Positions 5,484-64,000 of a DNA stretch of 64,000 bases are shown piece after piece. Position numbers and translations under genes: made by a program. The stretch spans positions 1-64,000 of IMG/VR virus record IMGVR_UViG_3300024999_000053. One strand, 5' to 3'. Within the stretch, counting starts at the first letter, position 1. Every line of letters begins with the position of its first letter. The DNA is from a virus. The notes under the pieces were generated by a model. It did not search any database and was not told the origin of the DNA. It saw nothing but the letters and a program-made list of their open reading frames with translations.

Positions 5484-5630
5484 AAACAATTATAAACAAT
5501 TGCAAAGTCTATAATTGTTTTTATTAACATCAAAATAAGGAGAGAAGCAGAAGAAATAAAAACTTCTCTTTTCTCCTTATTTTTTTACTATTTTCATCCA
5601 TCAACCAGTCTCTCCCACCCTCATCTCCAA

Positions 5631-8897: not shown

Positions 8898-9914
8898 ATG
8901 GCAGAAGTAGCAGATAAACTACCACCAGTTACAGACGAACAATGGCAAAAGTTAAATAAATTCAATCGTAAAATTACAGAGGAATTTTTAGAAGAGTCAA
9001 CTTCACTTAGTCCAAAAACTATTCGCCAATACAAATCTGCGTTGCAAATATTTTTCTTTTGGGTTTATGAAAATTGTGATGATAAATCTCTATTAGAAAT
9101 CAAGAGTAGAGATTTTCTTAAATATCAAAATTTTCTTGTAAGAAGGGGAATGTCATCTTCGGGAGTTAGATTAAAACGGGCAGCAATTAGTTCTTTAAAT
9201 GGATATATAATTACATATTACGAGGAAGAATATTCTACATTCAAAAACTTTATCACTAAAAAAATTTCTGCACCTCCAATGAATGATTTACATATAAAAC
9301 AACCAATGAATGCAGAAGAATGGGAATTATTATTAAAGAATCTTAAAGAACGTGAACAATGGCAAAAATTAGCATATTTGCAGTTTACTTATTCGACAGG
9401 CTGTAGAAGAGCGGAGTCGAGACAGTTACTTAAAGAAGTAGTTGATTATCCTCCTATCATTAAGGAAAAGATTATTAAAAATGAAGATGGAACAGAAGAG
9501 ACAAAAACAGTTACATTTTATACTACATCTGATATTCGCTGTAAAGGAAAAGGGGTTATTGGAAAAATAAGGAAACTACAATTTTCTAAAGAAGCTCTAG
9601 ATGCAATTAATAAATGGTTAACTTTTAGAGGAGAAGATGATTGTCCATATGTCTTCGCAATAAAAAGGGACGGTAGATATCAGCAAGCAGGAGAAGGACT
9701 ATTTAATGACTGGTGCAAGGATGATTTTAGTAAAGTTATTAATAGAAGAGTCCATCCTCACCAACTTCGTGAGCAAAGGGCGACGAACCTTGTAATTCAT
9801 GAAGGGAAAAATATAAAATCTGTACAGGCGTTATTAGGCCATGTCAGTTCGGCAACTAGTGAGATTTATGTGATTAGGGATAATTCAGATGATGTTGAAG
9901 ATGCATTTAGTTAA
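8898..9914 (+). CDS. Tyrosine recombinase (positionally like SPbeta YomM in the tail region)
   Basis: Catalytic set TGCR, KGK, HPHQLR, LLGH, SEIY. Confidence 0.9.
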   Translation: MAEVADKLPPVTDEQWQKLNKFNRKITEEFLEESTSLSPKTIRQYKSALQIFFFWVYENCDDKSLLEIKSRDFLKYQNFLVRRGMSSSGVRLKRAAISSLNGYIITYYEEEYSTFKNFITKKISAPPMNDLHIKQPMNAEEWELLLKNLKEREQWQKLAYLQFTYSTGCRRAESRQLLKEVVDYPPIIKEKIIKNEDGTEETKTVTFYTTSDIRCKGKGVIGKIRKLQFSKEALDAINKWLTFRGEDDCPYVFAIKRDGRYQQAGEGLFNDWCKDDFSKVINRRVHPHQLREQRATNLVIHEGKNIKSVQALLGHVSSATSEIYVIRDNSDDVEDAFS

Positions 9915-11459: not shown

Positions 11460-11509
11460 AACTAATAAAAGGAATCATAAACACAACGATATGATTCCTT
11501 TTATTAGTT
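11460..11509 (+). terminator. Long hairpin/terminator
   Basis: AACTAATAAAAGGAATCATA...TATGATTCCTTTTATTAGTT, 20-bp perfect inverted repeat. Confidence 0.6.
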
Positions 11510-11552
11510 AATTTAATAAGAAATTTTAAAATTAAAGGAGTGTCATTTAATT

Positions 11553-26450: not shown

Positions 26451-26648
26451 ATGGGCAAGAAGAAAATTTCTCCTAAAAAAAGAAGAGAGGGTGGTTTTAT
26501 GGGTAAAGTAATTAAATTTATTAGCAAGTCTCCAAAAAACCGCAAAGAACTTTCTAAAAAAGAAATACAAGATGCAGCAAAAGAATTATTATATGATGAT
26601 GATAAATACTTGGAGAAAGTATACAAAGAAATACTAAAAGAAATGTAG
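26451..26648 (+). CDS. Small basic protein, putative antitoxin
   Basis: Directly upstream of the PemK-like gene. Confidence 0.45.
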   Translation: MGKKKISPKKRREGGFMGKVIKFISKSPKNRKELSKKEIQDAAKELLYDDDKYLEKVYKEILKEM

Positions 26649-26697
26649 GTGTGTCACTACGTCCTTTATTGAAAAGATTGACTACAACTCTTTAGTT

Positions 26698-27372
26698 TTG
26701 TCTGGATTTGAATATGTTGAGAAAATGCCAATTGGGTTTTTTGAGTTTTCTAATCCGCATGATAAAGGATTGGCATTAAACCAAAAAATTGATTCGTCTT
26801 CTTTTGGAGGTACTCTGCAAATAAAAAATGATGGATTTAAGCCTATTGAAGATGAAAATGGTAATCTAAAAGCCCCAGAGGTTTGTATTGTTTCTAGAGC
26901 TAAAGCAAGACCAGTTTTAATTTTTCAAGATATAGATTTTAATGAAAAGTATCATGATAATGTTTTTGTAATTCCTATTCAAACGTTACGGAAGCCGAAC
27001 AAAGAAGAATATTTAGGCACAAGAGAAGATATTGATAGATATGAAAGTCGTTTACAGTATTATGAAGATGTGATCAATAAAAGTGATAAAGTTTATGATC
27101 AATATTATTTCCCAAAAACATTAGATAGTGGCGAAATATATGAACAGGTTTTAAGACTGAGCGATGCCAGATTTATTCACAAATCTTTTTTAATTAAACC
27201 TTTGCCTGAAAATGGTTTAAATGGAGAGGATCTAAAAGAAATTAATGTTAGACTAAGCAAAATGCTTAATATTAAAAACATAGAACAATGTTCAAAGTGT
27301 GAATATTCTTATGCAATTGATAACATAAAAAAGATATTAACTCGAATAGAGCGACTAGGAAAGAACGCTTAA
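26698..27372 (+). CDS. PemK/MazF-like endoribonuclease toxin (start uncertain)
   Basis: KARPVLIFQ...VFVIPIQT...VLRLSDARFIHKSFL. Confidence 0.6.
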   Translation: MSGFEYVEKMPIGFFEFSNPHDKGLALNQKIDSSSFGGTLQIKNDGFKPIEDENGNLKAPEVCIVSRAKARPVLIFQDIDFNEKYHDNVFVIPIQTLRKPNKEEYLGTREDIDRYESRLQYYEDVINKSDKVYDQYYFPKTLDSGEIYEQVLRLSDARFIHKSFLIKPLPENGLNGEDLKEINVRLSKMLNIKNIEQCSKCEYSYAIDNIKKILTRIERLGKNA

Positions 27373-29644: not shown

Positions 29645-30062
29645 AGATTATGTGCTCCCTAATGCGGTAACGTATTAGTGAAAAGTTGGCTTGTTCGGGA
29701 AAACTCCAGAGATGGACAATTCCGAGGATAATTATATTAATAATCGCGCTTAAATTGTATATGATTTGGGAATGTGATATTTACAAAGACATCGAAAATA
29801 TGATGTCTTTTTTTGTTTGTGTAAGTATGGTTATATATTTAAGGCGATTATAAATAATTATCTGTAGAGACTGAGAGGATATATGGTAACATATGTCCCA
29901 TGCCAACCACCCTTACAACCTCTAGCAAGGGTGAAGATACAGTCCGAACCACACCAATAATCTAAAAAAGAAAGTGTGGAGTTAGGTAGAAATGCCTAAC
30001 CGCTATAACATTTATGTTGTAGTCAGTAATCAAAATGATTTTTTGATGAAAGTAACAGTCTG
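29645..30062 (+). ncRNA. Group I intron 1 (418 nt, no ORF)
   Basis: Exon ends in U; IGS UGUGCUC pairs GGGU and 3' exon GCA; P TTCGGGAAA, Q AATTCCGAG, R GTAGAGACTG, S AAGATACAGTCC; terminal G; removal restores LLG|ANV. Confidence 0.88.
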
Positions 30063-30178
30063 GCAAATGTGACGGGTTTAAAAACGGCTGAAATGGCTCA
30101 ATACTTAACCGCTACTATGGCACAATTCAATGTCGTAGCAGAAGATAGTGTTTCAATAGTAAATAAAATAAATGAGGT
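30063..30178 (+). CDS. Tape measure protein, exon 2 (116 nt, absent from ORF track)
   Basis: ANVTGLKTAEMAQYLTATMAQFNVVAEDSVSIVNKINE(V), the otherwise missing piece of the conserved core. Confidence 0.88.
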
Positions 30179-30495
30179 TAGTAAATTAGCCTCCTAGTAT
30201 GGTGACATATTAGTAAAAATTCTTAAACTGCTGGAAATCCCTTAGAGACTTATAAACTACAACGTAGATGGAAACGTCAAGCGTGAATGTTTAAAAATTA
30301 TAAGTATTGGGTAATCAGCATCGAAATCCCTTAAATGGGAGACGTTCAACGACTATAATAGAAGTGGTTTATTGATTTATAAACCATAAGGTATAGTCTG
30401 AACTTTATGGAAACATAAAGAAATAGAAAGAAATTTCTATTCGCCACTACTATATAGTGGTCAATACCTTTTAATAAAGGGAAAGTAACAGAATG
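30179..30495 (+). ncRNA. Group I intron 2 (317 nt, no ORF)
   Basis: IGS AUUAGCCUC pairs GAGGU and 3' exon UGAU; P TGCTGGAAA, Q AATCAGCA, R TTCAACGACTA, S AAGGTATAGTCT; ends GAAAGTAACAGAATG; removal restores NEV|DNNFAV. Confidence 0.9.
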
Positions 30496-33400
30496 TGATA
30501 ATAACTTCGCTGTGACTTCGCAAGGTTTGGCACAAAGTTTGGCGAAAGCTGGGGAATCCGCGCAGATTTATGGTGCAACACTTGATGATGTTATTGGATA
30601 TACCACGGCAATTCAGACCGCCACAAAAGAGTCGGGAAATGTCATCGGAAATTCGCTTAAAACTACGATTTCTCGAACATTTTCGACAGATTCCGAGAAA
30701 GTATTAGCTGGAGTAGGAATTGCGATAAAAGATATATCAGGAAATGTAAGAGATGTCAATCAAATCTGGGGAGAATTAGCTGTTAAATTCAAAACGCTCT
30801 CTAGTGAGCAAAAACAGCAAATCGGACTTACAATTGGGAGTCGTTATCATTTAACACGGTTTTTAGCCCTTATGGATAATTGGCAAATAGTTACAGATGC
30901 CACCACAACATCACAACAGTCTTTATTCTCTGCTTTAGAGGAAAATAGAAAGCATTTAGGTAGTTTGGAAGCTCAGATTAATAAAGTAAAATCAGCAGGT
31001 CAAGAGCTTTCATATGTACTAGGAGAAAGCGGATTAAAATATGTAATGTATGGAGTTTTAGCAGGAACAACTTTGCTTGTTAATGGGTTAACAGAATTAT
31101 CCAATATGGGAGCAGGAGGCACAATCGCAATAACCGCTCTTGTACTAACTATGGGTGGATTATTAGCTAAAACATTAAGTCTTATTCCTGCACTTAATGC
31201 TGCAACTGTAGCTTTAAAGGCTTTTACGATAGCAACACTTACAAATCCGTGGATAATATTTGGAACTGTTGTTTTGGCTACAATAGTTAGCATTGTTTCA
31301 TATTTTGGACACGCTAAACAAGTAAGAGAAGAGCAAGAAAAATTAAACAAAACACTAGGTGACTCAACAAAAAGTTTTAATGTTCTTGCTGAATCAATAA
31401 ACAAAATAGGTGCTCCTACTCTTCAAAATATTAATGATATTGAAGCTCAAATTAAACGTTATGACGAATTAACTGAAGTAATACTTAAATCAAAAGAAGC
31501 TGAGTCTAAAAAAAGAGTTAAGACAATTGATCCTCGCACAATGCAAGTATCATTACAAAAGAAAAATATCCCAGAAGAAGTAATTGATCTTGCGGCAAAT
31601 CTTCGTATTGATGTTGGGGCATTTAAAACTTATGATGCATTGCTTTCAGAAATTACAAAAAAACAGAAAGAACTTGCTGATTCTACTGAAAAAGCCAAGA
31701 AAAATTCTACTGAGTATCAAGCACAGCAAATTAAACTATCTCAAACAAGTTTGGATGTTGCCAATAATACAAATGATTTAGTTAATGAGTATAAAGAATT
31801 GTCTATTATTACAGAAAAAAATGAGCAACAGACCAAACGTTACTCAGAAGTTAAGAATATGCTTTTAGCTATGTTTCCTGCTGAATCCAAAAATGGTCAA
31901 ATTATTATTGCTCTTTTAGAGGAAGAATCTAAGAAAAGAGTAGAACTTGCAGAAACAACAATGGCAAAATCTAGAGAACAATTGATAGCCAATGTTAAAT
32001 CTCAACAAATTACTTATGAAACTGCCGTAAAAAACATGGCTTTTTATCAGGCAGAAATAGATATGTTACAAGAACTTTGGTCTGCTCGTTCTAATAATAC
32101 TGGAAGCACAGGAAATTGGAGAATAGCTGAAGATTTAGGAATGGCTCAATCTAATTTTGTAGAAACAAAAAAAGAAGTAAATTCGCTATCAGATTCTATT
32201 AGTAAAATGAATGATGTTCTTAATTGGAAACCTGCTTCTGTTGCTGGTATTGGAGATAAAGACAAAAAAGATTCATCTTCAAAAAAAGATAAACCTGCTG
32301 ATCCATCCTATACAGACCCAATTGATGCTTTAATCAGAGAATCAAATGCTCAAGCAGAATTATCAAAAGCTAAAAGTGAAACTATTACAAAAGAACTTGA
32401 GCAAGCAAAAGCATCAAAAGACTATGGTTTAATTTTGGTTAAAAACAATGAACTTATAGAAAATCAAAAGAAAGCTATTTTGGACTTAAATGAAGCTCAT
32501 AATAAGATTAATGCTTTAAAAGATTCATCAATTTTATATTCTAAATTTGGAGATACTTCTCGTTGGTTTGACTCAAATAATGAAGCTTCAACTCAATATT
32601 ATTCGGAGTTAAATTCTGCATCTGCCGAAGTTCAAAAAACAATGGAAGCAGAATATACTCATATGGAAAAACTTCGTAAAGCTTGGGTAATAAACACAAA
32701 CGAAATAAAATTAGCAACAGAGGCTCAAAAAGAATTCGCAAAACAATCTCACGAAGATTTGTTCAAAGGAATAGAAGAACAATCCCAAGCTTTATCCTCT
32801 GCTGATGTATCCAAACTAGAATCCTCCTTTAAAAACCTAGACATCGAATCATGGATAGAATCAAACATCACAGCAACATCAGAATGGGCAGACGTAACAG
32901 CCTCTCTCCAAGAAGAACTAGCAAAATTAGGTAATCCAACAACACTAGAAGGTCAGAAAAAATATAATGAACTTTTAGAAGCTTCTGCTACTAAGGCGGC
33001 AACTGCATTAAAAGCACAGCAAGAATTAGAGAAAGCTAAAGAAAAAGCTGGTCAAGATGCACTGTTTGAACAAGCCGATGAAGATATCAAAGATATTATG
33101 TCTCAAATTGATGATGTAGACCAAATGCAAAAATTAGGAGCAGGTGGATTCTCTTCTCAAGTTCCTAAGATCAAAATTAACATTATTCCTGATATAGATT
33201 TGGATAGTGTAGATGAAGCTATACAAAAAGTTGTAGATGAAACAAAAAGTGAATTTACGTTCAAAGCACCTACTACTTTTATTAATGTTATTAATAATGA
33301 GTTTACTAATGCATTGTCTAAAGCTCAAGATAATATCATTGATCTTAAACAAAATATTAAAAATTTAGGTGAAATAAAACCTGAAAATCAAGGCCAGGTT

Positions 33401-48325: not shown

Positions 48326-51300
48326 ATGATTAATATTGAAAATGTTTTAAGAGATCATGGTATTGGAGTAGGAATATCAAAACAGAAATATTTAGATATG
48401 GAACGCAGAGCAATTAATGGAGAAGCGATTGCCGATATTACTGATCGAACCATTGGAGCCAGTGGATTTTTTTATGACCTGTTTGATAATACAAATGATC
48501 ATTCTTGTGGAGTAATGGACAATCGTAAAACCACAGCATCACAAGTATTATCAGCAGGAACAACAATTCTAACTGATAAAGTCAATGATGCTACAGGTGG
48601 AGATTCTATAAATGGATTTCCTACTGGTTGCGAAATAACACTCCAGCAAAAGAATGATGATGGAGTAACCGAAACAAAAGAATATGTTACTGTTACAAAT
48701 GGTGGAGTGAGTGAAGAAAGTGTTGTAATTGATAGGAGTGTTCCTACTACTGTTGTTGCTAGTGCTTACACAACATCTAAGGATGCCCGTCCACAGATTT
48801 TGAGTAATGGGTGGATAGTTAGTGTTGTAAAGGATACTAGTGTTTATCTACAATTTTATGTAGACAAGCAAGATGGAAATGGTTTTATACCATTATGTAA
48901 TTTATCCAATGTCTCGACAGATGTATCTATAGCATCCAATGGTACATTTATTTATGTGATTAAGACTTATGGGACAGTGGTTAGAAGTTATTATTTTGAT
49001 GCAACAATAGTTAGTGGATCTATCACAGCAACTGAAATTACCATAGATACCCAATCCTCCTTCGGTACAGGTTGCTCCCTAATAATAAACCCAACAGGCA
49101 CAGAACTACACGCCACATGGTCATCCAAAAATGCCACATATCCCAATTCATTCAATATTCGCTATGCAAAAGGCACTATATCTGCTGTAGATGGTAGTGT
49201 AAGTTGGGGTAGTGTTGAGCAGGTATCGATTCAGAATAATATTAACGTTAATCTTACAAATCCTTGTATTACAATTAAAGATAATAAACCTATAATTGTA
49301 GTTCAGCAACTAGCTGGTTCTAATTATTTTATTTCATGCTTTGTGTGGAATGGATCTTCTTGGTTAGGTGGTCCTGGTTCTTATGATATTCAAGACTATA
49401 CAACCTATGCCCAATCTTCACCAGACGCAATCTGCGATGAAAACGGGATTTTATGGGTAACGTGGCAAGGAAAAGATGCTACTCATCCTGATGTGGATAA
49501 TATTCATTGTAAATATTCTTCGGATGGTGGAGTAACATGGGTCAATGCAAATGGTGCTACTGATAAATTAACAATTGGAAACGTTTATCGTATGCAGAAG
49601 CCTTCAATTACATCCGATAAAAATGCTAACGTGTATATTTTGTTTAATGAATACAAGGGAGCGAATATATTTCAAGTTAGTAAGATTGTTTATGATGGAA
49701 CTGTATGGAGTAATATTACAACTTTAACATCAATATCAACTCAGAATGCAAACTATCCTCCGAATCCATCAACATGTAGTAATTATAATGATTTTACAGA
49801 TGCTATATCTGTATATAGTAATGTCAATCAAGATACTTCAACTGGTTCAGTTCAATTCCGTGGCATCTTCTCTCAAACATCTCAAGTCCCTCACCTAGAA
49901 ATAACACCATTGCAGCACTCCTATAAAACTAATGTTTTAATTTATCGTAGTTTAGGTAATGTTGATACTGTAAATGGGAGATTAGGGTTTAGTGATGGGT
50001 TTCAATCCACAACAACTTATGATCGTTCTACACCTACAACTGTTGTAAATTCTGCTTATGATACAAGTGGTAATGGCGGTAGGAAGTTGGTTAGGTTGAG
50101 TAATGGGTGGCTGGTTTGTGCGATGTATGATAGTCCAAACAACTCTACTAAATTTTATGTGTCCAAAGACAATGGTGCTACATGGAGTCAACTATGTATG
50201 CTAAATGGTCAATTTAATGGCTTCTCTATAACTTCTTATGGAACTAAAGTACACATGATTGCTTCATATCAAGGAGCAGTAGCAACCAATAGGAGTTTGA
50301 GTTTTGATGCGACAACAGTAACAAACATAGATATGGTAGGATCAACTGTAATTATTGATAGTGGTCAGACAATGATGGGTGCAAATTCTATTACAATAGA
50401 CTCCCTCGGCAATCTCCATGCTTGTTGGTCGTCAAAAAATTCGACATATCCCAATAGCTTCAATTTAAGATTTTCAAAGTCGGTTGATGGTGGGGCTACT
50501 TGGAGTGCTGTGACTCAGGTAACTAATGCTAACACAAGTACATTAAACTGGGTAAATCCTTGCATAGTTATTAGGAATAACTTACCAATCATAATATTTG
50601 AACAACAAATGTCTGGTTCGTATGCTATAAACTGCAATTACTTTAATGGAACGACTTGGTTAACAGCAAGCAATGGTACCGGAATACAACTTGTTCAATT
50701 AGCATACACTCAATCCGATCCATCCTCAATAGTTAAAAAATACGGTTCAAATATTGGTCGTATCTGGACTGCATGGCATGGATTAGATTCCACTGATACC
50801 ACAAAACAAAACGTAAGAGTTAATTATTCAGATGATTCAGGAACAATATGGAATACAGCAACTAAAATCACTACAGGTAACACAGTTGACCGTAAAAACG
50901 TTTCTCTCACTGAAGATACAAGTGGAAATGTCTATGCTGTTTATGAGGATAATGGAACATTAGTTTATCAAGTTTGCAATAATGGAACAACTACTTTTGG
51001 AGGATTAACAACTATCGGAACAGGGACTAATGTGAGTGCATTAGATAATTCAAGTGAAGTAAGCTTTACTAAACCATTAATTGTTTATATGAGTGCTAGT
51101 ACAGTTAAATTTTATGGGTTGTGGGAGGATATTGTAATTTTGCCACTTTTAGAAGAAGATATCAGATACGCCATAACTCCACCTGAAGCAGTCCCCTCAG
51201 TAACGTCATGGATAAATTATGATCATAATGCTAATTTCTCAATTGATACAAAAATATCACTTGTTTCCTCAGCATCAAATGAGAATTATGGTACACCTAC

Positions 51301-60924: not shown

Positions 60925-61500
60925 AAATGACAATTATAAAAAATATTATTAACAAGATTGATAAATTATACACAAATTTCTGCATCGCTTTATATTTTGG
61001 TGCAAGAAGGATTTTATTGAAACTTGATTTAATTGAGTATTAACAAAACCAATAACCCATAATAATAAATTTTAAACAACCTTTAAGCGTTTCAAATACA
61101 AGAGTGGTATAATCTTATACAAAAACTATTTGCTACGCTTAGAGGTGTATTGTGGTTTCTATAACCCTTGTTACAGTAGGGTTTTATGTGGCAACAAATT
61201 AAAAAAGTAATTGAGGTAAGTTAAATATTATGACTTATATTTATTCTGTGGTGGTTGGTATTTTGATTTATAGTATTTATATTATTCATCTATCTATGAG
61301 AGAATCATAAATCCGAGCAAATTCCAGTTTTAATGGATAGGTATAGACTAGGTAGTAAATCGAAGTAATCAAGAGCAAATGAAAGTATAAGAGAGGTAAA
61401 ATAGGGTATAAAACGTAATTTAGGTTAATTTGATAATATTTAGTTGGTTTTGGAGAGATGGTTTTATGATCATCTCTCTTTTATTATTGATAATTTTACT

Positions 61501-61622
61501 AAATGGCTTTTATGGGTAGCTCCCATATCAAAAAGAAGGTGTCCTTTCCTTCGCCATTTAGTTTTTATATTTTTAAATTAAAGGACAAGAAAAAGTGAAT
61601 AAAAATAAAAAAGAAAAGGACG
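61501..61622 (+). promoter_or_regulatory. Three-way-junction leader; loop TGTCCTTT complementary to the RBS
   Basis: P1 AAATGGC/GCCATTT; P2 TATGGG/CCCATA; P3 GAAGG/CCTTC; AAAGGAC at 61580 and 61615. Confidence 0.6.
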
Positions 61623-61629
61623 TGTTAAA

Positions 61630-62751
61630 ATGGAAAATGTATTAACAAAAGTTTATGAAGAACAAGAAGTAGCATTCAGAGAAAACAATGGACAAAGTGA
61701 AGTAAGAATTGATGAAGTGGCTAGATTTTGTGGTTGGACAGAAATTGCAAAAAGCGGAAATGAATGCATTAAATGGGCAAGAGTCAATAAACATTTAGTT
61801 GATTTAGGAGCGTCGACAGTAGTGGCGACAGGTGATTTTATTCCAGAATACATTATGTATCCACTTATAGGTAAAGCAAAAAATGATAGAGCAACACAAT
61901 TTATGTTATGGGTAGGAAAGGTATTAGTAGAAATTAGACAGAATGGTGCTTATATTTCTCCAAATATAACAGAAGAGCAAGAAATCAAGTTAGATAAATT
62001 CTCGACAAATAAAAAGATGAAGAATACATTCAAAACTTGTAATATAGAATCGATAGAGAATGAATATCGTGAATGCATGATGTATCATAAAAATAAAGAT
62101 GGTAAAGAGAAAAATGGTATTCAGAATATAATAATTAATGCTTTAAGTGACAGAAAACAAACATTAATAGATAGTGGCAAAGGGTCTTTTGCTTTAGTTT
62201 TAGCAGAAGTTGTGAATACAATCTCAAAAAAGAAAACTGAAACTAGCAATAAGAGAAATGGACAAACAATTAGATATAAGAATGGAATTATAGATAAGCA
62301 GACACAAATAATCAATGAAAAGGATGAGGAGTTAAATAATTTAGAAAGTAAACTGAATTATTATGAACCAGAAGACTATGAATGGATTGAGTTAAATGTC
62401 CATCCATTTTCTCATAATTACATGACAAGCGCAGCAAAAGATTGGAATACTGGAAATCCAAAAATCGTCAAGAGTGAAGGATATTACAAATGGCAAAATA
62501 AATTTCCATATCAAGAACTTCCTACATTTGATGATTTAGGAATAGATTTTAATAAAAGAGTTTGTGCTTGGTTTAGATTTGTTGCAAAATCAACTTTTGA
62601 CCCAACTAATTGTTCAAAAACTGCATTAGATACTATATGTAAGTATTACGACGTAGATGATAATAAAATAGAAATGATGGAGTGCAAGAAAATAAATAGT
62701 TGTAAAGAATTTTGGGAAGGAAAAATCTATATAGCATTTAGGAATCAATAA
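61630..62751 (+). CDS. Bro-N-like protein with RusA-like C-terminal domain, paralog of 10270
   Basis: FIPEYIMY.L..KAKNDRATQFMLWV.KVL..IRQNGAY; HPFSHNYM...FDPTNCSKTALDTI...DDN. Confidence 0.7.
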   Translation: MENVLTKVYEEQEVAFRENNGQSEVRIDEVARFCGWTEIAKSGNECIKWARVNKHLVDLGASTVVATGDFIPEYIMYPLIGKAKNDRATQFMLWVGKVLVEIRQNGAYISPNITEEQEIKLDKFSTNKKMKNTFKTCNIESIENEYRECMMYHKNKDGKEKNGIQNIIINALSDRKQTLIDSGKGSFALVLAEVVNTISKKKTETSNKRNGQTIRYKNGIIDKQTQIINEKDEELNNLESKLNYYEPEDYEWIELNVHPFSHNYMTSAAKDWNTGNPKIVKSEGYYKWQNKFPYQELPTFDDLGIDFNKRVCAWFRFVAKSTFDPTNCSKTALDTICKYYDVDDNKIEMMECKKINSCKEFWEGKIYIAFRNQ

Positions 62752-62769
62752 TACATAAATAAAATAATA

Positions 62770-63099
62770 TTGAATAACGAGGGGTTGTCCGATCTGGACA
62801 ACTCTTTAATAATCAATAAAAGGAGAAATAAAACAATGCACACCTATTTAAAATTAAATGAAGAAAAGTTAGATTTATTGATTAAAGTATTACATGATTC
62901 ACAATATGAAACTGAACATGAAAAGGTCATAGCAAATGAATTATATGAGAAATTTAGACATTTGTGTTTAGATAATTTTTATAATCTTGGTGAAGGTTGG
63001 GATGATGAAGAGGAAGATGTGGATGAGAATTGTGAAAATGATTTATCTCTTGTGAAGAAAAAGGATATAGCAGGTTATGATGATGATTTGGGTTGGTAA
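62770..63099 (+). CDS. Hypothetical acidic protein (likely start ATG 62836)
   Basis: RBS AGGAG precedes MHTYLKL. Confidence 0.55.
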   Translation: MNNEGLSDLDNSLIINKRRNKTMHTYLKLNEEKLDLLIKVLHDSQYETEHEKVIANELYEKFRHLCLDNFYNLGEGWDDEEEDVDENCENDLSLVKKKDIAGYDDDLGW

Positions 63100-63243
63100 T
63101 ACTTGTCCAATTTAATTATGTACAGATAGAACGCATATCCTATTAGTAAATTAATAAATAAAGTTAACAAATAAAATATTTCAATAGAAATTGAGACATT
63201 TCATTAATTTGAAGTGTCTTTTATTTGTGTTGAAATAACACAT

Positions 63244-63340
63244 AAGCAGACTAGGATAGGCCATCCGAAAGAAACACTCGCCTTAGTGTTTTTGTCTGCT
63301 TCTATTTTTTAATAATTAAGGCAAATAATAAAAGAAGGCG
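63244..63340 (+). promoter_or_regulatory. Three-way-junction leader; loop CGCCTT complementary to the RBS
   Basis: P1 AAGCAGAC/GTCTGCTT; P2 GGAT/ATCC; P3 AAACACT/AGTGTTT; AAGGC at 63318 and AAGGCG at 63335. Confidence 0.6.
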
Positions 63341-63348
63341 GTATAAAA

Positions 63349-64000
63349 ATGATTAAATGTATGTTAGACAGAAAGACTTTTGCAAAGAAACCAAATGGAT
63401 TTGAATCTAGTGGAATCCAACTAAGATTAATTAAAACAGAAATAGAAATTGAAGAATTAGCAAATTTATTGTGCAATGGAGCAACATTTAAACCTGCATA
63501 TCTTAATGGTACTAAAAGTAAAGATTGGATCAGTCAACAAATATTTGCTTTAGATTTTGATGAAGGGACTACTATTGCTAAAGAGTTAGAAAGATGTAAG
63601 GAGTTAAATATTAATCCAGTATTCGGGTATAAAACATTTTCTTATACAGAATATAAAGAGAAATTTAGACTAGTATTTTGTAATAATGAAGTAATAACTG
63701 ATGTTGAGATAAGGAATGACTTTCAAAATCTATTAATTAAATTATTCTCTAATAGTGATAGTGTTACTTTTGATCCTACTAGACTATTCTTTGGAGGTAA
63801 AGGGTTAATAGAGTGTAATTATAATAATAAAATAAATGTTAAAGAAATAATGGAAAATAATAAAGATTTATTAAATGAAATAAATAATGATAATAATAAA
63901 TCTCTTTCTTCTTCAAATAAATCATCTAAGGGTAAATTGAGCTTTCTCAATACTAATACACTAAACTCTTCTTCTATTAGTATTGCAGAAGCTCACACTC
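63349..64000 (+). CDS. Primase-polymerase (AEP-like) replication protein, 5' part; runs off the window
   Basis: Open to the end; QQIFALDFDEG (DxD), YKTFS...KFRLVF, DPTRLFFGG. Confidence 0.65.
   Translation, partial: MIKCMLDRKTFAKKPNGFESSGIQLRLIKTEIEIEELANLLCNGATFKPAYLNGTKSKDWISQQIFALDFDEGTTIAKELERCKELNINPVFGYKTFSYTEYKEKFRLVFCNNEVITDVEIRNDFQNLLIKLFSNSDSVTFDPTRLFFGGKGLIECNYNNKINVKEIMENNKDLLNEINNDNNKSLSSSNKSSKGKLSFLNTNTLNSSSISIAEAHT

Follow-up and report, generated by a model that had tools for sequence, protein, structure and literature searches.

Why should two short leaders of unlike sequence, placed before two unrelated genes, fold alike and carry in the same loop a complement of the next gene's ribosome-binding site (RBS)? 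This question is raised by the last part of a 64,000-nucleotide (nt) stretch of virus DNA, positions 1 to 64,000 of IMG/VR record IMGVR_UViG_3300024999_000053, which was analyzed as a whole and is called here the window; it is the first part of a 117,963-bp virus record (29% G+C). The two elements, E1 and E2, precede genes for an Ant-like antirepressor and a prim-pol-like protein. A sequence-only reading of this region had described both as three-way junctions and had noted that the second hairpin loop of each has two complementary copies farther downstream, the distal one being the RBS. It had proposed a class of cis-regulatory RNAs toggling between a decoy site and the RBS, to be searched for in phage genomes with covariance models. 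Comparison of 32 leaders parsed from related uncultivated phage contigs now places E1 and E2 in one class of cis-linked structured leader RNAs, which is real, conserved and apparently undescribed. To judge from covariation, its defining feature is the interaction of the second loop (L2) with the Shine-Dalgarno (SD) sequence and with a second site. The carriers form a clade of large, low-GC, uncultivated phages, in which these RNAs are leaders of early and DNA-metabolism genes.

Two leaders fold as three-way junctions whose loop matches two downstream sites

Each leader was parsed into an outer helix (P1), a first hairpin (H1, loop L1), a linker, a second hairpin (H2, loop L2) and the downstream sequence with sites 1 and 2. 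The features of E1 are the following.

61452–61487, + strand: E1 hairpin A, a terminator-like stem-loop with U-run directly 5' of the junction (terminator scan; G-U pairs on the + strand)
61498–61562, + strand: E1 three-way junction (minimum free energy fold −25.6 kcal/mol, z −5.2)
61498–61507 with 61553–61562, + strand: E1 P1 helix (fold and parse)
61511–61527, + strand: E1 H1 hairpin, loop TAGCT, holding the palindrome AGCT
61528–61534, + strand: A-rich linker from H1 to H2
61535–61552, + strand: E1 H2 hairpin, with loop L2 TGTCCTTT at 61540–61547
61580–61587, + strand: E1 site 1, AAAGGACA, an 8-nt Watson-Crick complement of L2, 50 nt 5' of the start codon (duplex −9.8 kcal/mol)
61615–61623, + strand: E1 site 2, the SD region, AAAGGAC, G-U-extended to 61623, 15 nt 5' of the ATG at 61630 (duplex −9.0 kcal/mol)

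Those of E2 begin with an upstream cassette.

63179–63188, + strand: box TTTCAATAGA, opening the E2-type cassette, conserved in most relatives and occurring once in the window's own genome
63193–63225, + strand: E2 hairpin A, a terminator-like stem-loop with U-run (terminator scan)
63226–63242, + strand: hairpin B, TGTGTTG AAA TAACACA, small and conserved, just 5' of the junction
63244–63301, + strand: E2 three-way junction (minimum free energy fold −20.1 kcal/mol, z −3.5)
63244–63251 with 63294–63301, + strand: E2 P1 helix (fold and parse)
63254–63266, + strand: E2 H1 hairpin, loop AGGCC, holding the palindrome GGCC
63270–63293, + strand: E2 H2 hairpin, with loop L2 TCGCCTTA at 63278–63285, including CGCCTT at 63279–63284
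63317–63322, + strand: E2 site 1, TAAGGC, complement of L2, 32 nt 5' of the start codon (duplex −8.1 kcal/mol)
63335–63341, + strand: E2 site 2, the SD region, AAGGCG plus G, 14 nt 5' of the ATG at 63349 (duplex −10.2 kcal/mol)

The three-way junction is the minimum free energy fold of each element, and none of 200 shuffles was as stable, which bears out the architecture first described. The two complements of each L2, with the distal one at the SD, were likewise found where they had been reported. Chance is a poor explanation for them, since two sites as long as those observed arose in only 2 of 20,000 shuffles of the downstream leader for E1 and in 1 of 20,000 for E2. The loop-site duplexes of the two window leaders reach −8 to −10 kcal/mol, versus −1.8 and +1.9 kcal/mol at the next-best place. 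AAAGGAC has 10 matches in the 64 kb on both strands, three of which fall within 81 nt at E1. The rest of both leaders is predicted to be unstructured, so ordinary secondary structure would not hide the SD. The reverse strand of the junctions folds about equally well, and the + strand is preferred on two grounds only, the G-U pairs of the relatives and the link to the SD.

A family of leaders in related phages

Viral, genome and metagenome collections were searched for homologs of the gene 3' of E2, and eight loci with duplicate, identical upstream sequence were removed (L015, L016, L020, L035–L038, L040). The three-way-junction architecture was present in 21 of the 30 distinct upstream regions of these primase-like homologs, the window counted; two of the 21 were not parsed, one being cut by the contig end (L013) and the other degenerate, with no 5' arm of P1 (L031). 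The nine regions that have no junction (L010, L022, L028–L030, L033, L034, L041, L042) belong mainly to more distant homologs, and distant homologs in cultured phages (Bacillus phage Deep-Purple, Staphylococcus phage DH2) have no such leader. Two covariance models, one for a long-H1 and one for a short-H1 type, were then run together with a motif scan for the conserved upstream box. This search, of the kind proposed at the outset, recovered further copies in related phage contigs, before other genes (L001, L006, L070, L073, L079, L081–L084), as well as a second copy in L081 (6821–6895) and two more in G001. Family members are three-way junctions of 52–75 nt, with a P1 of 6–11 bp and an L2 loop of 7–12 nt.

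In the window's own 118-kb genome, models R1 and R2 found E1 (58.4 bits, E 1.4e-11 with R1) and E2 (41.2 bits, E 3.3e-7 with R2) and no other copy. Weaker matches, at 5522–5589, 11461–11517 and 26621–26699 of the window and at 48742 and 53136 of G004, were set aside as plain terminator hairpins or poor folds, and a structural scan of the same genome for branched hairpins with a U-tail yielded nothing else comparable. BLASTN of both leaders against GenBank phages gave no match, and the E1 hairpins, used as exact patterns against viral contigs, gave none either. R2 found no copy in 151 sampled Clostridia-class genomes or in a Caproiciproducens genome, nulls that say little because the models lean heavily on sequence.

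E1 is the window copy of a leader type that stands before the primase homolog in L023, L062 and L068. L2 and the SD region are the same in E1 and these three, and all three stems differ by compensatory changes. No junction lies directly 5' of the Ant homolog in the five loci examined (L001–L005). The element is thus a portable cassette and not bound to one gene. Several leaders with differing L2 loops and H1 palindromes may share a genome; the complete 166-kb G001 has three and the window has two.

Two further G001 leaders lie 750 nt apart (G001:C1 95025–95855, − strand, seen as L047), one before a SegE-like GIY-YIG endonuclease and the other before a 27-amino-acid (aa) CxxC peptide. Homing-endonuclease genes recur directly behind leaders, in G001 and also in L006, L070 and L081.

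The cassette upstream of E2 also varies under constraint. In the relatives, hairpin A changes its letters and keeps its pairing, with G-U pairs on the + strand, and hairpin B retains its pairing in the same way. Hairpin B is therefore likely to be transcribed with the leader, from a start upstream of it; on the same ground, a candidate promoter in the TTGAAAT box 5' of E2 was rejected. One IMG/VR contig (L059, around 9119–9168, − strand) has the box and hairpins A and B without a three-way junction, followed by a consensus AGGAGG SD. The junction with its sites is therefore an optional insert in a common cassette.

Helices covary, and L2 covaries with both of its sites

In the short-type alignment (A9), 96.2% of cells were paired, 12 of 17 pairs were changed on both sides and 55 cells were compensatory, a result equaled by none of 500 shuffles; slid registers gave 34–52% pairing. 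The long-type alignment (A8) was 84.9% paired, with 9 of 21 pairs changed on both sides and H2 partly out of register. Both alignments are model-fitted, which favours the structure, and an independent parse of the leaders agrees with them. G-U pairs on the + strand occur in P1, H1, hairpin A and hairpin B.

Each of the 32 parsed leaders has, downstream, two Watson-Crick complements of L2 that do not overlap. Matches were at least 5 + 5 nt long in 31 of them; the remaining one, L006, has 5 + 4 nt, or 5 + 5 with one G-U. Site 1 is the upstream one, 14–36 nt from site 2, and in 24 leaders the distance to the start codon was 12–17 nt for site 2 and 27–53 nt for site 1. The loops fall into nine or more address classes (GUCCUUU, GCCUU, UCCUUA, UACUCUC, AACUCUC, AACUCAC, AACUCGC, UGCUCUC and the loop of L039, which has 12 nt and a 10-nt SD match). 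When nine specificity classes were matched with each other's leaders, the cognate pairing scored 111 and no other of the 362,880 permutations reached this value. One off-diagonal excess was seen, the GCCUU loop scoring 14 on the G001_Y leader versus 12 on its own, an effect of the register overlap between the two addresses.

The changes can be followed base by base. The CUC class shows U-A, A-U or G-C at position +3 with both sites, and the CCUU class shows U-A or G-C at position −1. Between L011 and L073, P1 and H1 are identical and L2 and both sites have been exchanged together. The SDs themselves depart from consensus exactly where L2 does, GCGAGA, GUGAGA, AAGGCG and AAGGAC being examples. 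As an internal control, L2 had no consistent complement in the 110 nt upstream; a complement of L1, sought throughout the leader, was not found, nor had the junction strands one downstream. Compensatory changes in three helices and in both loop-site duplexes thus uphold the early impression, gained from two copies, that structure and loop-RBS pairing are kept through sequence change.

Start-like sequence was observed behind site 1 in some leaders. In E1 a GTG follows after 7 nt and opens a 16-codon open reading frame (ORF) that overlaps the Ant start codon; in L023 (about 1440–1500), site 1 is followed by the same ATGTTAGTG as at the real start. From these letters, site 1 looks like a decayed duplicate of an entire translation start region (L023; window 61580–61645), a likeness which hints at tandem RBS duplication as the origin of the two-site design. 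Conservation of an ORF after site 1 was considered and dropped, many members having no start codon there.

Nearly all H1 loops are palindromic

A palindrome of at least 4 nt is present in 13 of 14 distinct H1 apical contexts, and in 10 of the 14 it is 6–8 nt long; none of 13 distinct L2 loops has a palindrome of at least 4 nt. Six palindromic cores were seen (AGCT, GGCC, TCATGA, TGATCA, (G)TAATTA(C) and TTGCAA), and they differ among the three G001 leaders and between the two of the window. Kissing-loop dimerisation is the role of the retroviral dimerisation site (DIS), and phi29 pRNA is a three-way-junction RNA with loops that pair between molecules. Like the DIS, H1 loops of 7–9 nt hold a 6-nt palindrome, and the putative dimerisation here would be of the same kind. 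The palindromes suggest homotypic kissing, from which comes the proposal that two junctions may bind site 1 and the SD together. Alternatively, some palindromes may merely lengthen H1 into a hairpin with a 4-nt loop and a bulge, as in the predicted fold of L023.

The leaders match no Rfam family

Rfam scans gave no match for the junctions, which the sequence-only reading could not assign to a named family. At the gathering threshold, the whole window matched only a group I intron; at E ≤ 10, a 2.2-kb region gave chance-level matches only (E ≥ 0.85), C4 not among them; and 18 related loci gave only tRNAs, elsewhere than at the leaders, with none in the window region. The tRNA covariance model had no match at leaders. 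No description of this leader family was found in the literature searched.

A ligand-binding riboswitch was also considered. Both the length and the sequence of the junction strands vary (J1/2 is absent, UA, AC or UUU; J2/3 runs from UA to UCAAAAA; J3/1 has 0–2 nt), both loops vary, and no Rfam riboswitch matched. Since neither strands nor loops are conserved, a ligand pocket, and with it a ligand trigger, is unlikely on these sequences.

Resemblance to c4 and CI antisense RNAs

The nearest counterpart that we met is c4, the antisense RNA of the immI operon of phages P1 and P7. In the annotated P1 record AF234172, this 77-nt RNA folds as a three-way junction whose 3' hairpin carries b' in its loop, while a' belongs to a junction strand; its targets are a2 (7 nt), which starts 4 nt after c4, and b2 (8 nt), which lies 11–18 nt before the icd start, and ant1 follows. 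Like c4 of P1 and P7, the leaders described here are small three-way-junction RNAs in sense orientation on the same transcript as their targets. The order of the helices is the same, it is the 3' hairpin whose loop matches the RBS of the following ORF, another short target is placed between RNA and RBS, and target lengths correspond. An antirepressor gene stands downstream of E1, and the gene classes are those of c4 and CI targets, Ant-like for E1 and primase-like for E2. The loops and targets of c4 reportedly differ between P1 and P7 and so give heteroimmunity, which is partly borne out by passages of PMC5320573. The operon controlled by CI of P4 holds replication (primase) genes.

There are also differences. 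In c4 the closing stem has 17 bp, one hairpin is of the UUCG type and sites a1 and b1 are putatively present upstream, whereas here P1 has 6–11 bp, H1 ends in a palindromic loop and an upstream site is lacking; the scaffold is smaller and its sequence unrelated. Passages of PMC5320573 on c4 describe a stable RNA of about 77 nt, released from its precursor by RNase P and acting in trans, whose b' occludes the RBS. The table in PMC2864571 lists c4 for Proteobacteria and phages, while the apparent hosts here are low-GC. By analogy, the new family would work like c4 without being a member of the c4 family.

CI, the RNA of the seqA/seqB/seqC immunity of satellite phage P4, according to the parts of PMC4825925 that deal with it, pairs with two sites, seqA and seqC, and is thus similarly one leader-encoded RNA region complementary to two separate sites on the same transcript. 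CI differs in having one site upstream and one downstream, and premature transcription termination as outcome. Since both sites lie downstream here and the distal one is the SD, a translational block would be likelier than termination. The rep leaders of IncI-alpha and IncB plasmids, with loop-to-RBS pseudoknots, and tisB/IstR-1, with control at a standby site, are other cases in which a hairpin loop or an antisense RNA pairs at or upstream of the RBS of a replication or toxic gene and sets its translation. In the IncI-alpha/IncB plasmids the pseudoknot is an activator that depends on a leader peptide and on a separate counter-transcript. In the present family, an upstream ORF is not conserved and nothing pointed to a counter-transcript.

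Proposed mode of action and alternatives

The reading that we prefer, tentatively, from sequence comparison is that of a leader-embedded anti-SD repressor RNA, c4-like and able to act in trans. L2 would be an anti-SD sequence private to each leader, pairing with the SD of the next gene and with the near-identical site 1. Its pairing would block 30S subunits from the start region and so hold translation down for products that would be harmful in excess (antirepressor, primase, homing nucleases). The logic would be that of P1/P7 c4 and P4 CI, an antisense RNA in sense orientation on the same transcript as its short targets; such an RNA, being encoded in its targets' own transcript, could also act on other copies of that mRNA. 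Two junctions would cooperate, the mRNA's own and a second one joined to it by kissing of the palindromic H1 loops, so that two L2 loops could cover site 1 and the SD simultaneously. Repression, action in trans, dimerisation and any RNA processing are steps that we infer. A bolder version, which we consider unlikely, is an addressable RNA-only repressor that dimerises through its palindrome and clamps one start region with two anti-SD loops. In that version, the address of each gene or cassette (L2 plus palindrome) would be shuffled anew from phage to phage and serve as a code for immunity, incompatibility or timing; the module would be a counterpart of c4 and CI that arose independently in low-GC phages.

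Several observations weigh against a c4-like repressor. One L2 loop faces two near-identical sites, where c4 uses a' and b' for two different ones. C4 (RF01695) gave no match in the window's own 118-kb genome at E ≤ 10, the gathering score of that model being 45 bits and the positive control, c4 of P1, scoring 68.8 bits. A 33rd copy (L081, 6821–6895) pairs at site 2 by only 4 Watson-Crick and one G-U pair and has a near-consensus SD. The primase leader of G001 and its leader X have GAGAG in common as the core of site 2, and site 1 alone distinguishes them; they cross-score 10 versus 11–12 for the cognate pairs, and specificities within this genome are thus not fully separate. The H1 loop TCGCT (L019, L043) has no palindrome, and both L081 leaders carry the same one. 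The covariation, moreover, is explicable by pairing in cis alone.

This last point leads to a switch acting in cis only, the model first put forward for this region. In it, L2 would alternate between site 1, which leaves the SD free (ON), and the SD (OFF). Folding kinetics, temperature or a junction-bound factor would tip the balance, and no trans RNA would be needed. Every leader has L2 and both sites on a single molecule, the duplex with site 1 is usually the longer one (6–8 versus 5–7 nt), as expected of a competitor that is transcribed first, and the linkers of 7–27 nt between P1 and site 1 are long enough for a pseudoknot. However, no trigger is visible, and the unconserved junction and loops argue against a ligand or a common protein site. 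Such a switch gives no reason why three-part specificity should turn over repeatedly on nearly identical scaffolds, as between L011 and L073, and it leaves the palindromic H1 loops without one; we judge it possible and on balance rather unlikely. As for the upstream copy as a decoy, and the toggling, other readings agree with the sequence data just as well: two loop copies may fill both sites at once, or site 1 may be a ribosome standby site that needs blocking too.

The reverse effect was also weighed, namely that the junction and a pseudoknot of L2 with site 1 guard the mRNA against decay from its 5' end or hold a standby 30S subunit and thereby raise expression. SD-like stabilisers and activating loop-to-RBS pseudoknots do exist (cryIIIA STAB-SD, IncI/IncB rep leaders), the leader is otherwise unstructured, and the resemblance of site 1 to a degenerate start region (GTG after 7 nt in E1, ATG in L008 and L007) would fit. 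Yet L2 pairs with the SD core itself and not beside it, the SDs are weakened toward complementarity with L2, and the start codon after site 1 is not conserved, being missing in E2, L009, L018 and L024, which together make an activating element improbable. A branched intrinsic terminator or attenuator, in which most transcripts would end at P1 and the U-run, short of the gene, with the loop-SD matches of secondary importance, is less probable still. The U-rich tract of the original description was present in both window copies, immediately 3' of P1 in E1 and 4 nt 3' of the junction in E2, and most relatives have a run of 4–6 U within 3–8 nt of P1. As a constant part of the element it did not hold, since it is missing in L017 and L006, weak in L070 and usually not adjacent to the stem; with a tract so little conserved, termination would not be the core function. 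Neither junction was called by the terminator scan, and termination does not explain why L2 covaries with two sites transcribed later. Just as remote is an element acting at the DNA level or as a protein operator, whether a single-strand initiation or origin structure for the neighbouring primase or the operator of a phage RNA-binding protein. It would suit the E2-type copies directly before the primase-like gene in 21 of 30 distinct homolog loci. The same element also precedes unrelated genes (Ant-like, GIY-YIG, HNH, helicase-like, the 27-aa ORF), no sequence is conserved enough for a common protein site, and L2 is matched to a site whose distance from the start codon is fixed, which indicates a function at the mRNA level.

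The leader-embedded antisense RNAs known so far to police their own operon are P1/P7 c4 and P4 CI, all from Proteobacteria. If the c4-like repressor reading is true, the same logic operates on a different and smaller scaffold in large low-GC phages, as a portable cassette before antirepressor, primase and homing-endonuclease genes, and offers a compact, programmable part for translational control in Gram-positive hosts. The family is a natural set of near-identical scaffolds with different loop-target addresses and is suited to compensatory swaps. These can address how many base pairs specific RNA-RNA repression requires at minimum, whether the duplicated target acts as decoy, standby site or second clamp, and whether a palindromic loop drives dimerisation.

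Genomic setting and other features of the window

E1 and E2 stand at the beginning of a block of DNA-metabolism genes, just 3' of the lysis genes (Amidase_3, 58909; holin-like, 60523). The genes behind them are as follows.

61630–62751, + strand: gene behind E1, Ant-like antirepressor of 373 aa (PHROG anti-repressor families, best E 1e-10)
63349–64000, + strand, continuing past the window end: gene behind E2, prim-pol-like protein (ORF; phrog_25531, E 2.7e-32)

A Pfam search of the 373-aa Ant-like protein gave no match. The prim-pol-like protein has 618 aa, ends at 65205 in the genome and also has a weak DNA-primase PHROG match. In relatives, leaders stand before genes for homing endonucleases (GIY-YIG and HNH), before one for a zinc-finger protein, before a 27-aa ORF and before a gene with a weak DEAD-helicase match below cutoff. 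Low and tightly set translation is plausible for such proteins. Tyrosine recombinases are encoded in all four phage records searched (G000, G001, G004, G005), and a temperate or plasmid-like lifestyle is therefore possible. In two related loci, tRNA clusters of three and five genes lie a few kb from the primase-leader cassette (L007 5824–6054 and L014 172–605).

A non-coding stretch of about 700 nt 5' of E1 contains an extended −10 promoter-like sequence (+ strand; TG at 61105–61106, TATAAT at 61108–61113) and, 3' of it, a strongly hydrophobic 26-codon ORF with its own SD (61230–61310, + strand). The ORF could encode a small membrane peptide or be a type I toxin-like gene, and its transcript would continue into E1 hairpin A. 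Between the Ant-like gene and a small acidic 87-aa ORF lies the hairpin GGGGTTGTCCGATCTGGACAACTC (62783–62806, + strand), with an identical copy in the related contig L001 (4151–4174) and a weak, sub-threshold match to the Rfam family 'freshwater-2'.

Farther upstream, the group I intron (Rfam RF00028, 72.8 bits) lies at 30169–30420 (+ strand), between the end of an ORF at 29662 and the start of a 3052-aa ORF at 30512, and may interrupt a structural gene. Many of the late genes are separated by gaps of 300–400 nt. In large intergenic gaps of the structural region, two perfect terminator hairpins of unusual length (16–20 bp; z −6.4 and −9.1) were observed at 5532–5583 and 11460–11509 (+ strand).

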